IMG/VR virus record: IMGVR_UViG_2698536677_000018
Location: 1-4,705 of that record
Source: a virus
Taxonomy: Duplodnaviria > Heunggongvirae > Uroviricota > Caudoviricetes
Length of the DNA: 4,705 bases
Strand: one strand, 5' to 3'
The first letter of the stretch is position 1; the number at the start of each line of letters is the position of its first letter. The notes beneath the pieces are model-generated. The model was not told the origin of the DNA, made no database searches, and saw nothing but the letters and a program-made list of their open reading frames with translations. The position numbers and the translations under genes were made by a program. Positions 47-4,705 of this stretch are shown in pieces.

Positions 47-73
47 TTGATTTTTTTGTTTGCTGTTTATTAA
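47..73 (+). promoter_or_regulatory. Candidate sigma70 promoter (-35 TTGATT 47-52, -10 TATTAA 68-73), possible late promoter analogous to lambda pR'
   Basis: Hexamers read directly from sequence. Spacer is only 15 nt and the -10 lacks the conserved final T, so the match is weak. Position just after an upstream stop codon and ~200 nt upstream of a strong terminator fits lambdoid late-leader layout. Confidence 0.2.
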
Positions 74-252
74 AAACACTTCTGCATGGTGAATCCCCCT
101 GTGCGGTGGGGCAATCAGCAAGAAGGAATATGGGGTAATCGCGGATTCAGGTGCTGATACTGAATTCACCGGGAGGCACCCGGCACCATGCTTTGCCACA
201 AAAGTGTTATTTCTGTTTTTCTCAAACTATCATCGTTATCCCTTTATTTTCG

Positions 253-364: not shown

Positions 365-2656
365 ATGTCGATTAAACATTATGATGTTGTCAGGGCGGCG
401 TCGCCGTCAGACCTTGCGGAAAAGCTGACACACAAACTGAAAGAGGGCTGGCAGCCATACGGCGGACCGGTTGCCATTACGCCGTACACACTGATGCAGG
501 CGGTGGCTATTGAAGGAGAGCCACAGGTCGGCCCTTCATCTGAGCCGGATTGGTACTACGTCATCGTACTGGCCGGGCAGTCCAATGCCATGGCTTACGG
601 TGAAGGGCTTCCGCTGCCGGATTCATACGATGCTCCGGATCCGCGCATTAAACAGCTGGCGCGCCGCAGTACAGTTACGCCGGGTGGGGCTGCCTGCAGA
701 TATAACGATATTATTCCGGCTGACCACTGTCTGCATGATGTGCAGGATATGAGTACGCTGAATCATCCGAGGGCTGACCTGAGCAAAGGGCAGTACGGCT
801 GTGTCGGCCAGGGTTTACATATTGCCAAAAAACTGCTCCCGTATATCCCGAATAACGCGGGGATCCTGCTGGTACCATGCTGTCGTGGTGGTTCGGCATT
901 TACCCAGGGCGCGGAGGGGACATTCAGCGAGTCCACGGGGGCCACAGCAGAAGGTGATGTGGTGGTCAGTGGTGCAACTGAGCCGGAGTGGTACTACGTC
1001 ATCGTACTGGCCGGGCAGTCCAATGCCATGGCTTACGGTGAAGGGCTTCCGCTGCCGGATTCATACGATGCTCCGGATCCGCGCATTAAACAGCTGGCGC
1101 GCCGCAGTACAGTGACGCCGGGCGGGGCTGCCTGCAGATATAACGATATTATTCCGGCCGACCACTGCCTGCATGATGTGCAGGATATGAGTACGCTGAA
1201 TCATCCGAAGGCAGACCTGAGCAAAGGGCAGTACGGCTGTGTCGGCCAGGGCTTACATATTGCCAAAAAACTGCTCCCGTATATCCCGAATAACGCGGGG
1301 ATCCTGCTGGTACCATGCTGTCGTGGTGGTTCGGCATTCACCCAGGGCGCGGAGGGGACATTCAGTGCGGACACGGGGGCCAGCCAGGATTCGGCACGCT
1401 GGGGTGTGGGTAAACCGTTATATCAGGACCTGATTGCGCGCACTAAAGCTGCATTACAGAAGAACCCGAAAAATGTGTTGCTGGCGGTGTGCTGGATGCA
1501 GGGAGAGTTTGACATGAGCGCCGCCACCCACGCACAGCAACCTGCGCTGTTTACAGCCATGCTGACACAGTTTCGTGCTGACCTCTCCGTGTTTAACGCG
1601 CAGTGCCATGGTGGCAGTGCTGCAGATGTGCCGTGGATTTGTGGTGACACGACGTATTACTGGAAAAATACATACGCTACCCAGTACGACACCGTGTACG
1701 GCGGGTATAAAAACAGGGAGAGTGAGGGCGTTTATTTTGTGCCCTTCATGACAGACGGTAACGGCGTCAATACCGCCACTAACGCGCCGGCAGAAGATCC
1801 GGATATTCCGGCATCAGGATATTACGGTGCGGCATCGAGAACGAATGGAAACCAGGTATCATCAAACCGCCCGACACATTTCAGTTCATGGGCGCGCAGG
1901 AGCATTATTCCGGATCGTCTGGCAACCGCTATTCTGAACGCAGCCGGGCGCACCTCAGCCTTCATCAGTGGTAAGGCACCGGAAATCAAACCCTCGCCCG
2001 GCGGCAACACGCCATCGGGTCCGTCTGCAGATACGTCCGTTCGCACAATCTCCCTGCTGCCGGCAGCCGGAGAGGCTGCTGCGCAGGGCTGGAGCATTAA
2101 GGATGGCGGAATTCAGTTGTCAGATGGTGTATTTAAGATCACCAAGCAGAGCAATAAAACCTGGTCCCTGACGCATCCGGTGGATGACGCAATTACCCTG
2201 CTGACACAGGGCGGCAGACTGACCTGTAAGTTCCGCCTGTCAGGCGCACTGACCAACAATCAGTTCGGGCTGGGGATTTATCTGTATACGGATGCTCCCG
2301 TTCCTGATGGTGTGGCGATGACGGGTACCGGTAATCCGTTCCTGATGTCGTACTTCACTCAGACCACTGACGGCAGAGTGAATCTGATGCATCACAGGAA
2401 AGCCGGAAACACGAAGCTGGGGGAGTTCGGCGATTACGGTAACGACTGGCAGACGCTGGAGCTGGTGTTCACCGCCGGCAGTGCCACGGTTACTCCGAAA
2501 CTGAATGGAGTGGCTGGCCCGGCATTCCAGGTTATAAAAGACAGTCTGACACTGGGGCTGAATGCGCTGACGCTGACGGATGTTACAAAAAATGCAGCGT
2601 ATGGCGTTGAGATAGAAAGTCTGGTGCTGGAGATAAATGCACCGGCATCATCATAA
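365..2656 (+). CDS. nanS-p: Prophage NanS-p-type sialate (9-O-acetyl-Neu5Ac) O-acetylesterase, SGNH/SASA-family, with N-terminal DUF1737-like region and an internal duplicated segment
   Basis: 763-aa uninterrupted ORF with good SD. N-terminus [21 protein letters not shown]... and the [11 protein letters not shown] motif are recalled as characteristic of the esterase ORF found upstream of the lysis genes in Stx-type prophages. The GQSN block occurs twice (around aa 71 and aa 217). Confidence 0.8.
537..944 (+). repeat. Direct repeat copy 1 inside the esterase CDS (encodes about aa 58-194, including the GQSN motif)
   Basis: Aligns base-for-base with 975-1382 at a 438-bp in-frame offset. The 391-bp core 537-927 vs 975-1365 shows 9 mismatches (~98% identity). 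Confidence 0.9.
975..1382 (+). repeat. Direct repeat copy 2 inside the esterase CDS (encodes about aa 204-340, including the second GQSN motif)
   Basis: Same alignment as copy 1. The copies are separated by a ~30-bp unique linker encoding ...[17 protein letters not shown]... Confidence 0.9.
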
Positions 2657-2805: not shown

Positions 2806-3021
2806 ATGTACCAGATGGAAAAAATCACAACGGGTGTGTCATACACCACGTCAGCGGTGGGGACGGGATACTGGTTACTGCAGCTGCTGGACAAAGTCTC
2901 TCCGTCCCAGTGGGTGGCGATAGGTGTGCTGGGGAGTCTGCTGTTTGGCCTGCTGACGTATCTGACTAACCTGTATTTCAAAATCAGAGAGGACCGGCGT
3001 AAGGCGGCGCGGGGAGAGTAA
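2806..3021 (+). CDS. S: Class II holin (S21-type pinholin), 71 aa, with dual-start motif M1-Y-Q-M4
   Basis: Translation [71 protein letters not shown] closely matches phage 21 S as recalled (...[14 protein letters not shown]...[22 protein letters not shown]). GGAGA SD upstream. The six-frame ORF starting at 2701 would run through the terminator hairpin, so the ATG at 2806 is preferred. Confidence 0.85.
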
Positions 3022-3025
3022 AGTG

Positions 3026-3370
3026 ATGAATAAAAAATACGAACTGGTTGTTAAAGGGATAAATAATTACCCGGATAAGATTACTGTTACTGTGGCACTG
3101 GAAATTGGTGGGTATCCGTCACTGTTGTTGCCATATGTGGCGATTAGTCTTGACCGTACTGAAGGTGCCACGCTGGAGTTTTACGAAGCTGAGGCGAAAA
3201 AGCAGGCGAAGCAGTTTTTCATGGATGTTGCTGCCGGGTTATGTGAAGGGGATGGTCCGTTGCCGGAAAAGCGGCCCATCATTTTAGAGGCGCAGGATGT
3301 GTTGATAACCTACAGAGGAAAACTACCGGGAATAATTACTGGTTCTCTGAAGACTCCACCGCTGGCCTGA
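3026..3370 (+). CDS. Conserved hypothetical lysis-cassette protein, 114 aa, soluble; possibly DUF1327/YdfR-like
   Basis: ORF with strong SD (GGGGAGAG 3011-3018) that starts 5 nt after the holin stop. Its position between holin and endolysin matches the slot of ydfR in the E. coli Qin prophage as recalled. No transmembrane segment or recognisable catalytic motif. The family assignment is from memory, not a search. Confidence 0.55.
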   Translation: MNKKYELVVKGINNYPDKITVTVALEIGGYPSLLLPYVAISLDRTEGATLEFYEAEAKKQAKQFFMDVAAGLCEGDGPLPEKRPIILEAQDVLITYRGKLPGIITGSLKTPPLA

Positions 3371-3420: not shown

Positions 3421-3957
3421 ATGAACGCAAAAATCAGATACGGCCTGTCGGCTGCCGTTCTGGCGCTGATTGGTGCAGGGGCGTCTGCGCCTGAAATCCT
3501 CGACCAGTTTCTTGACGAAAAAGAAGGTAACCACACCACGGCATACCGTGATGGTGCGGGGATCTGGACCATCTGCCGCGGTACCACCCGAGTGGATGGT
3601 AAACCTGTCGTCCCGGGCATGAAGTTGTCGAAGGAAAAATGCGACCAGGTTAACGCCATTGAACGTGATAAGGCGCTGGAGTGGGGGGAGCGCAATATTA
3701 AAGTACCGCTGACCGAACCCCAGAAGGCGGGTATCGCGTCATTTTGTCCTTATAACATTGGCCCCGGTAAGTGTTTCCCGTCTACGTTTTACAGACGGAT
3801 TAATGCAGGTGATCTAAAAGGTGCCTGCGAAGCGTTCGCTGGTGGATTAAGGACGGTGGCAGAGACTGCCGTATCCGCTCAAATAATTGCTACGGTCAGG
3901 TATCCCGGCGAGACCAGGAAAGTGCACTGGCGTGCTGGGGAATTGACAGGCAAGTAG
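3421..3957 (+). CDS. R: SAR endolysin (T4-lysozyme-family, phage 21 R-like), C-terminal ~40 codons apparently frameshifted
   Basis: N-terminal Gly/Ala-rich signal-anchor-release segment YGLSAAVLALIGAGASAP. Catalytic triad spacing E-x8-D-x5-T in KEGNHTTAYRDGAGIWT matches phage 21 R (LEGVSYIPYKDIVGVWT). After ...GDLKGACEA the called frame gives FAGGLRTVAE..., unlike the family, while the overlapping frame encodes RWWIKDGGR...SRRDQESALACWG, which resembles phage 21 R (RRWTYAGGK...TRREIEREVCLWG). Confidence 0.75.
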   Translation: MNAKIRYGLSAAVLALIGAGASAPEILDQFLDEKEGNHTTAYRDGAGIWTICRGTTRVDGKPVVPGMKLSKEKCDQVNAIERDKALEWGERNIKVPLTEPQKAGIASFCPYNIGPGKCFPSTFYRRINAGDLKGACEAFAGGLRTVAETAVSAQIIATVRYPGETRKVHWRAGELTGK

Positions 3958-4041
3958 AATATTTTGCTGAAAATGACGTTGGTCAACGCGGGTGGGTAAC
4001 ACGAAATCCTGCGAACTGGCAAAAGCTAAGTGAATAAAAGT

Positions 4042-4080
4042 AAAACCTCGTTTGTTGGCCGCAAACGGGGTTTTGTGTTT
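4042..4080. terminator. Strong bidirectional rho-independent terminator hairpin (13-bp stem, 7-nt loop, T-rich tracts on both sides)
   Basis: AAAACCTCGTTTG (4042-4054) pairs with CAAACGGGGTTTT (4062-4074) with one G-U pair, followed by TTTTGTGTTT. The A-run on the 5' side gives a U-tract on the reverse strand. Confidence 0.65.
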
Positions 4081-4143
4081 CTGACCTTGAGTAAGGCAAA
4101 GGAGAACATAGGAAAGTATAAACGAATTCTGTTGAGATTGACT

Positions 4144-4290
4144 ATGAAAGACGGCCTTGAACTGAAAGCGCCTGTAACTGATGACGTCAGCAGAGCGCTG
4201 GCTTTTGCTATTAAGTGGGTGGCGGTCGGTATTGCTGTGTCTCCGATGCTGTATGGGCTGGCAAAACTGGTCATTGCGTTGAAATCGTGA
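4144..4290 (+). CDS. Hypothetical small membrane protein (48 aa, one predicted TM segment)
   Basis: First ATG in the 4030-4290 open frame lying downstream of the terminator hairpin. C-terminal hydrophobic stretch WVAVGIAVSPMLYGLAKLVIAL. No convincing SD within 5-10 nt of the ATG, so support is weak. Confidence 0.25.
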   Translation: MKDGLELKAPVTDDVSRALAFAIKWVAVGIAVSPMLYGLAKLVIALKS

Positions 4291-4302
4291 AGAGGATTAA
4301 GC

Positions 4303-4413
4303 ATGTCAGACAAGCTCATAACGCTGGCGAAGATCCTCTGTGTAATCGTCGGCATTTCATTTTCACTAATATGCTGGTTGCTATTTGCTTTTCCACTGCC
4401 TGGCGCGTCTTAA
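4303..4413 (+). CDS. Hypothetical small hydrophobic peptide (36 aa, single TM-like segment)
   Basis: ATG at 4303 preceded by GAGGA (4292-4296) at 6-nt spacing. Translation MSDKLITLAKILCVIVGISFSLICWLLFAFPLPGAS. Too short to appear in the supplied ORF track. Confidence 0.35.
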   Translation: MSDKLITLAKILCVIVGISFSLICWLLFAFPLPGAS

Positions 4414-4443
4414 CTTTGTCAGGGCTGGTGGGGTGAGGGGGAT

Positions 4444-4705
4444 ATGAACCGTGTTCTGTGTGTGGTGATTATTGTCCTGCTGGTAGCCTGTGGTGCGCTT
4501 GGTCTGGGGCTGAATCATTACCGCGATAACGCCATTACCTACAAAGCGCAACGCGATAAAAAAGCCAGTGAGCTAAAGCTGGCGAACGTGACAATTACTG
4601 ATATGCAGGTACGCCAGCGTGATGTCGCTGCACTTGATGCCAGATACTCGAGGGAATTAGCCGATGCGAGAGCTGAAAATGAAACTCTGCGTGCTGATGT
4701 TGCCG
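4444..4705 (+). CDS. Rz: Rz inner-membrane spanin (i-spanin), lambda-type, 5' partial (runs off the window end)
   Basis: Translation [87 protein letters not shown] is near-identical to lambda Rz as recalled (...[64 protein letters not shown]). N-terminal TM segment then coiled-coil region. GAGGGG SD upstream. Confidence 0.9.
4665..4705 (+). CDS. Rz1: Rz1 outer-membrane lipoprotein spanin (o-spanin), embedded in the +1 frame of Rz, 5' partial
   Basis: ATG at 4665 in a different frame from Rz encodes [13 protein letters not shown]..., matching the lambda Rz1 start MLKLKMMLCVMMLP as recalled. Only 13 codons lie in the window; the true start could instead be the Met at 4680. Confidence 0.6.

Follow-up and report, generated by a model that had tools for sequence, protein, structure and literature searches.

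On balance, the DNA between the endolysin gene R and the spanin gene Rz in the analysed stretch (4,705 nt, further referred to as the window) is best read as a decayed version of an accessory cassette that is common, can be exchanged between phages and occupies the R–Rz slot of phage-21/Stx-type lambdoid prophages. It comprises the 486 bases (positions 3958–4443) that separate the end of the R reading frame (3957) from the Rz ATG (4444). The proposed layout of the cassette is R 3’-UTR, intrinsic terminator, short leader with a ribosome-binding site, ORF1, ORF2 and Rz, where ORF1 (48 or 60 aa) and ORF2 (43 aa) would lie close together and each encode a tiny protein that crosses the inner membrane once. 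The first-pass annotation had described an R–Rz segment of ~490 bp with a terminator, a Shine-Dalgarno sequence, a palindrome and two small ORFs; all these elements are present in the sequence, and the segment is non-random. Alignment with relatives shows three defects in the window copy: the upstream ATG of ORF1 is gone, ORF2 contains a +2 frameshift, and the R gene is broken. ORF2 and R are probably non-functional in this copy; ORF1 could still be made from the ATG at 4144.

Extent and spread of the segment

The segment was found by megablast, at a coverage of at least 80%, in 990 of 5,426 complete E. coli genomes, and it is ~90% identical in the PhiR12/PhiR5 phages, which are viable. In intact relatives two hypothetical proteins are annotated here, WP_001303555.1 (60 aa) and WP_001280929.1 (43 aa). 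From end to end, the window segment aligns collinearly with this intact two-gene module. A nucleotide search with the segment was among the checks proposed in the first-pass annotation; it yielded the intact module. The module is already catalogued, as hypothetical proteins throughout RefSeq, and has no novelty at the sequence level; the copy in the window is decaying. In the sources searched, ORF1 and ORF2 are named only hypothetical or transmembrane protein, with no assigned function. Literature searches on the R–Rz slot, the Sakai locus tags and small lysis regulators found nothing relevant, and an Rfam scan of the whole window (E ≤ 1) gave no match in the slot.

Of the two boundaries drawn initially, the right one stands. 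It is set by the 5’-part of the Rz i-spanin gene (4444–4705, plus strand; Pfam PF03245, Phage_lysis, 6.6e-16), which runs off the end of the window and is annotated as a lysis protein in relatives. The left edge at 3958 is not native, since it is a by-product of a −1 frameshift in R (an A is missing between 3834 and 3835). Alignments with ML35, PhiR12_3, H-19B and EC20017429 identify R (3421–3957, plus strand) as a defective gene of a phage-21-type SAR endolysin. The frameshift, present in the window copy alone, replaces the last ~40 residues. The native stop codon TAA of relatives corresponds to positions 3951–3953, where the window has CAA, a change common to ML35; the R copies of ML35 and of the plasmid are marked as pseudogenes by PGAP. 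The frameshift at 3834/3835 could be a sequencing or assembly error. The closest relatives of the window copy sit among IS elements.

The gap between R and Rz had been called non-canonical. No gap is present in K-12 Qin, where the equivalents of R and Rz (rrrQ and rzpQ) overlap, but a gap is normal for this phage group: R and Rz are separated by 297 bp in H-19B, by 993 bp in 933W and by ~490 bp in many E. coli prophages. Since R and Rz overlap in Qin, the cassette is dispensable. The label of cargo is appropriate, given that the accessory genes are absent from Qin and the contents of the slot differ among related phages. These comparisons indicate that the slot is recombination-prone and that its contents are exchanged between phages.

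When the 933W slot was compared with that of the window, only segment positions 1–89 (80% identity) and 346–479 (83.6%) matched, and the middle 256 nt were unrelated. Thus 933W and the Sakai prophages Sp6, Sp10 and Sp12 share with the window the slot itself, the left arm, and the right arm with an ORF2 homologue directly upstream of Rz. They differ from it in that an ant cassette of ~760 nt replaces the terminator and ORF1. An antirepressor-like gene in this slot of some Stx-type prophages had been mentioned at first reading, and this is confirmed: ant lies between R and Rz in 933W, Sp6, Sp10 and Sp12. The 933W homologue of ORF2 (44 aa), located between ant and Rz, is unannotated in AF125520 (locus L010, ~3435–3569). 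Its Sakai equivalent is annotated as a 48-aa hypothetical protein (ECs_1966, ECs_5713, ECs_5732).

Other phages combine the same parts differently. H-19B and many Stx2a/Stx2c phages have an R 3’-UTR, hairpin and AAGGAG site identical to those of the window, and the H-19B gap, like that of the window, carries a small tail-anchored membrane ORF. Unlike in the window, it is the only one, ORF2 being absent from the 297-bp gap, and it belongs to a different family, PHROG 6632, annotated as unknown function. The slot of STEC1589 is a mix of a 6632-type ORF, ORF2 and an ORF1 fragment. In Salmonella prophages, the lysozyme gene is followed by the hairpin with a compensatory change in the stem, then by ORF1 and Rz, with no ORF2.

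Several features were observed in the rest of the window. The sole significant Rfam match is that to the prophage sRNA STnc100 (55–227, plus strand; 100.8 bits, E = 6.4e-22), which is accompanied by a terminator-like hairpin at 252–270. A NanS-p-like SASA esterase gene (365–2656, plus strand) contains an in-frame tandem duplication: the 300-nt copies (526–825 and 964–1263) are 95% identical and lie 438 nt apart, and the product has 763 aa versus ~616 aa (1,851-nt genes) in close relatives. The intergenic region between the esterase and holin genes (2657–2805) contains a terminator-like hairpin at 2739–2767. The PasA/PasC sRNAs are placed at the esterase–holin intergenic position in a preprint, the match to the window being by position only; the Pas sRNAs are located near the esterase and holin genes and thus outside the R–Rz slot. 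The real holin of the window is encoded by an S21-type gene at 2806–3021 (PF04971, 1e-32). A YdfR/DUF1327 gene (3023–3370, plus strand) lies between the holin and the endolysin, so that the lysis cassette has two accessory insertions in all.

The terminator and the two small ORFs

The left arm of the slot is the R 3’-UTR (3958–4040, plus strand). It is conserved, was aligned in 32 variants including Salmonella, and shares 80% identity with the corresponding end of the 933W slot. It contains the motif GG(A/G)TAACACGAAATCC at 4002–4017 and a variable patch at ~3975–3998. Across these 32 variants, from E. coli to Salmonella, the sequence GGATAACACGAAATCC (in the window, GGGTAACAC...) does not change; it can form a short stem-loop, and the 20 nt preceding it are highly variable.

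The hairpin occupies positions 4041–4080, with the stem formed by 4041–4055 and 4061–4075 (15 pairs), the loop at 4056–4060 and a T-tract that extends to 4080 (UUUUGUGUUU). Folding of the region gives −21.5 kcal/mol (z = −2.2). A hairpin forms on the minus strand too, where it is followed by the U-tract ACUUUUAUU; the hairpin is bidirectional because of the A-tract on its 5’-side. The predicted folds of both strands therefore agree with the strong bidirectional terminator described initially. With a G+C-rich stem-loop followed directly by a U-tract, the hairpin has the predicted structure of an intrinsic (Rho-independent) terminator. A consensus scan of the window flagged a minus-strand terminator-like site inside the hairpin (inner stem 4067–4049, 6 pairs), and in a relative (L004) the full hairpin was flagged. 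The hairpin is kept in 32 distinct variants, where the loop is variable and the stem shows UG/UA/AU wobble or compensatory changes. It is present in cassettes of the ORF1 and H-19B types and absent from the ant type (no comparable strong hairpin was obtained by folding the 933W slot); hence it travels with the small-ORF cassettes.

Downstream of the hairpin, an AAGGAG ribosome-binding site (4099–4104, plus strand) is followed in the window by AAC ATA. That no canonical start codon follows this Shine-Dalgarno sequence had been noticed before, and the comparison with relatives accounts for it. Among 86 related loci, 82 have ATG as the codon three nucleotides after AAGGAG/GGGAG; only the lineage of the window has ATA (4108–4110) there, so the ribosome-binding site is orphaned by a change in the former start codon of ORF1. 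In ML35, PGAP starts the 60-aa protein WP_072164699.1 at the position equivalent to 4108.

The two small ORFs with hydrophobic segments, also described earlier, were recovered at 4144–4290 and 4303–4413. ORF1 (4108–4290, plus strand; open frame in the window 4144–4290) encodes a predicted small single-pass membrane protein of PHROG 1115/4493/3246, with a polar N-terminus and a hydrophobic C-terminal half. Its long form has 60 codons, and a 48-aa core starts from the ATG at 4144. In the PHROG comparison the 48-aa form gives E = 2.7e-32 and the extended form 5.9e-44; the families are annotated as unknown function. No match to ORF1, ORF2 or the H-19B ORF was found in scans of Pfam, NCBIfam and PADLOC (E ≤ 1), and ORF1 and ORF2 showed no homology to holin, antiholin, spanin or defence families.

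Selection on the ORF1 core (residues 13–60) was estimated by comparing E. coli copies, Salmonella lysis-slot copies and Salmonella copies from the tail end of prophages. There are ~21 synonymous versus 6.5–15 non-synonymous differences; pN/pS equals 0.11–0.25 in the annotated frame and exceeds 1 in both other frames. For the first 12 codons of the 60-aa form, pN/pS between genomic contexts is ~1. A (G)GAGG site located 5–6 nt upstream of the internal ATG is kept in every genomic context. Given this site and no constraint on the leader peptide, the 48-aa core from ATG 4144 is probably the main, real product of ORF1. At the same time, the ORF1 leader hardly differs between E. coli and Salmonella, although pS of the core is ~0.56. 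A further constraint may therefore act on the nucleotide sequence itself; it lies outside the preferred explanation.

Two other candidate features in this region were rejected. The perfect 8-bp palindrome TGACGTCA exists, at 4182–4189 and not at 4185–4192 as given at first. The window contains 20 perfect 8-bp palindromes versus ~18 expected, that is, the chance level; this one lies within ORF1 codons and is not conserved, PhiR12_3 having TGACATCA. A 109-aa ORF on the antisense strand (4355–4026) is a by-product of the sense frame, on which selection acts; stop-free stretches antisense to the ORFs also occur in relatives.

In Salmonella, GER2 and Sakai Sp4 the ribosome-binding site serves an upstream ORF of 8 codons, which is followed by a 26-nt hairpin-containing stretch; the E. 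coli form of the locus does not have this stretch. The latter form looks like a deletion that fused the ATG of the upstream ORF in frame to ORF1. The 26-nt stretch, located between the ribosome-binding site and the ORF1 leader, contains an AGGGA...TCCCT hairpin. The region with the 8-codon ORF and this stretch was located at ~2975–3010 in L092/L093 and at ~2660–2690 in L009 (GER2), and is also found in L103 (Sakai Sp4).

The ORF1 family is narrow, since an exhaustive HMM search with the ORF1 profile matched only 24 of 1.84 billion cluster representatives, all of them from Escherichia or Salmonella prophages. A scan of GTDB genome contigs with the ORF1 alignment gave 43 pattern matches, none of which was confirmed. 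Homologues of ORF1 also follow tail-fibre genes at the ends of Salmonella prophages, sometimes as tandem paralogues. Such copies have a bidirectional terminator upstream and, in the copy that was scanned (L095), another terminator downstream. Their location identifies ORF1 as mobile accessory cargo, and its occurrence outside lysis cassettes weakens the case for a dedicated role of ORF1 in lysis. In L097 (2856–3168) and L098 (165–528), the tandem paralogues come after an SASA/DUF6645 esterase gene and tail-fibre-associated genes, at the very end of the prophage, and adjoin host genes.

The footprint of ORF2 (PHROG 4906; intact form 43 aa, WP_001280929.1) is 4303–4436 on the plus strand. A 2-nt insertion at ~4369–4372 (+2 frameshift) leads to a 36-aa product ending at 4413; the intact frame would stop at 4434–4436, 7 nt before the Rz ATG. 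The insertion is common to the ML35 and EHEC plasmid copies, which are labelled frameshifted by PGAP. The window form matches PHROG 4906, annotated as unknown function, with E = 3.4e-12, and the intact form does so with 2.5e-27. Homologues of ORF2 were found only in E. coli, all named hypothetical. Between several alleles pN/pS is 0.09–0.21, and between the two main allele groups it is 0.4–0.55; in most of these comparisons the annotated frame has the lowest value. About 13 of the 84 copies surveyed are frameshifted or cut short. These broken copies and the higher pN/pS between the groups indicate that the constraint on ORF2 is modest. With pN/pS far below 1 in the annotated frames only, both ORF1 and ORF2 are under purifying selection and encode protein, ORF2 being the less constrained of the two.

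Expression and role of the cassette

ORF1 and ORF2 would most likely be expressed from the late pR’ transcript by Q-modified RNA polymerase reading through the hairpin. In lambda, RNA polymerase modified by Q reads through terminators in late transcription. In viable phages Rz, the terminase and the structural genes lie downstream of the hairpin, hence late transcription must pass it. The location of Rz and the packaging genes, together with the negative scan for a plus-strand promoter-like site upstream of ORF1, points to late pR’ expression. In the lysogen, the hairpin would stop non-antiterminated transcription from upstream promoters and thus provide insulation. Both proteins would be dispensable accessories that share the inner membrane, and the time of synthesis, with the pinholin, the SAR endolysin and the i-spanin. 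Our best guess for their function is fine-tuning of lysis; it is a tentative one, only slightly ahead of a role in lysogen benefit or exclusion.

The latter role corresponds to a possible, if doubtful, alternative: ORF1, and perhaps ORF2, would be expressed in the lysogen from an own weak promoter active in the prophage state, with the host inner membrane as the place of action and superinfection exclusion or another lysogen benefit as possible roles. Morons of this lysogen-benefit or exclusion kind are expressed from the prophage, as HK97 gp15 and lambda bor and lom. A moron, as introduced by Juhala and Hendrix, is an extra gene between genes that are adjacent in related phages, with its own σ70 promoter and a downstream terminator. 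The segment had been called moron-like, and the part concerning position holds: the cassette, dispensable and exchangeable, lies between genes adjacent elsewhere, and homologues of ORF1 are found at two classic moron sites, the R–Rz slot and the prophage end after the tail-fibre genes. It resembles bor, lom and HK97 gp15 in being extra DNA that encodes small membrane or envelope proteins, in occupying more than one moron site, and in a slightly lower G+C content (0.44–0.47 in the slot versus 0.50–0.55). The terminators on both sides of the tail-end copy agree with this alternative as well. What fails is the own promoter and the downstream terminator. The consensus scan found no plus-strand σ70-like site between the terminator and ORF1 (4076–4143 in the window) or in relatives, in either genomic context. 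There is no hairpin between ORF2 and Rz; the only terminator is upstream of the ORFs, and ORF2 runs straight into Rz. No PADLOC defence model was matched.

It is unlikely that the terminator, leader and ORF1 constitute a self-contained mobile type I toxin-antitoxin module, a proposal that would explain both the same arrangement at two unrelated prophage sites and the near-invariant leader; the same low probability applies to the milder version, in which ORF1, ORF2 and the ORF of H-19B together make up an overlooked class of small membrane proteins that regulate pinholin/SAR-endolysin lysis in Stx phages. As a specific mechanism for the window, which we consider very unlikely, ORF1 would be a membrane toxin whose translation-initiation region is covered by a cis-antisense RNA of ~75 nt, transcribed from a minus-strand promoter (−10 TATACT, 4120–4115) and ended by the hairpin (4075–4041). 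The cassette has in common with hok/sok, symE/symR and zor/orz a small protein (48–60 aa) with a hydrophobic C-terminal half, a conserved leader, tandem paralogues, and a possible short cis-antisense RNA over the initiation region of ORF1. The minus-strand TATACT site is the only promoter-like match near ORF1. A site with the same −10 box is found at the corresponding position of the Salmonella tail-end copy, an unrelated context, and each of the two sites lies ~70–85 nt away from a bidirectional terminator; on folding, the predicted RNA forms two hairpins (z = −2.3 and −4.6). However, promoter matches of this quality (9 of 12 positions) occur at the chance level, with 4 found versus 4.2 expected in the window. 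The −10 box overlaps conserved Lys-Tyr codons, so its conservation is confounded. Unlike the known systems, the cassette lies at a late-operon site and has a putative antisense RNA only, matching no Rfam antitoxin family, and the topology of ORF1, with a polar N-terminus and a C-terminal membrane segment, is different. The Hfq-CRAC table of Tree et al. (PMC4104026, Table S2), mapped on Sakai Sp4, Sp6, Sp10 and Sp12, has no sRNA peak in any R–Rz slot; the peaks in these prophages are downstream of Rz or near the esterase.

That the ORFs are spurious, and that only the terminator and the 3’-UTR of a non-coding spacer matter, is highly improbable. The ORFs are indeed very short and damaged in the window, the start codons assigned to them differ between gene callers, and no curated family (Pfam, NCBIfam) is matched. 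Against this stand the low pN/pS of the ORF1 core, based on 21 synonymous differences, and of ORF2 alleles, as well as the reading frames and lengths of the ORFs, which are kept across E. coli, Salmonella and 933W. The earlier suggestion that the segment is what a deletion left of a larger gene is refuted. The candidate for such a gene, the 933W-type antirepressor, fills the same slot between common flanks in 933W, Sp6, Sp10 and Sp12, yet a tblastn search with 933W Ant gave no match in the slot, and blastn to 933W matches the flanks only, with an unrelated middle and no ant-derived sequence. Moreover, the module to which the segment corresponds collinearly is intact and subject to purifying selection.

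Implications for Stx-type phages

The practical value of the finding consists in three corrections: the start codon of ORF1, the unannotated ORF2 homologue of 933W, and the pseudogene status of R in the window. Small-protein families PHROG 1115, 4906 and 6632 rotate through the R–Rz slot in thousands of pathogenic E. coli genomes, and no studies of them were found in the literature searched. In Stx-type phages, the timing of lysis governs the amount of Shiga toxin and phage released. Hence an additional membrane protein made together with the pinholin, the SAR endolysin and the spanin is a candidate modulator of release. If the slot proteins do form a class of small membrane regulators of lysis, they would affect the timing of toxin release.
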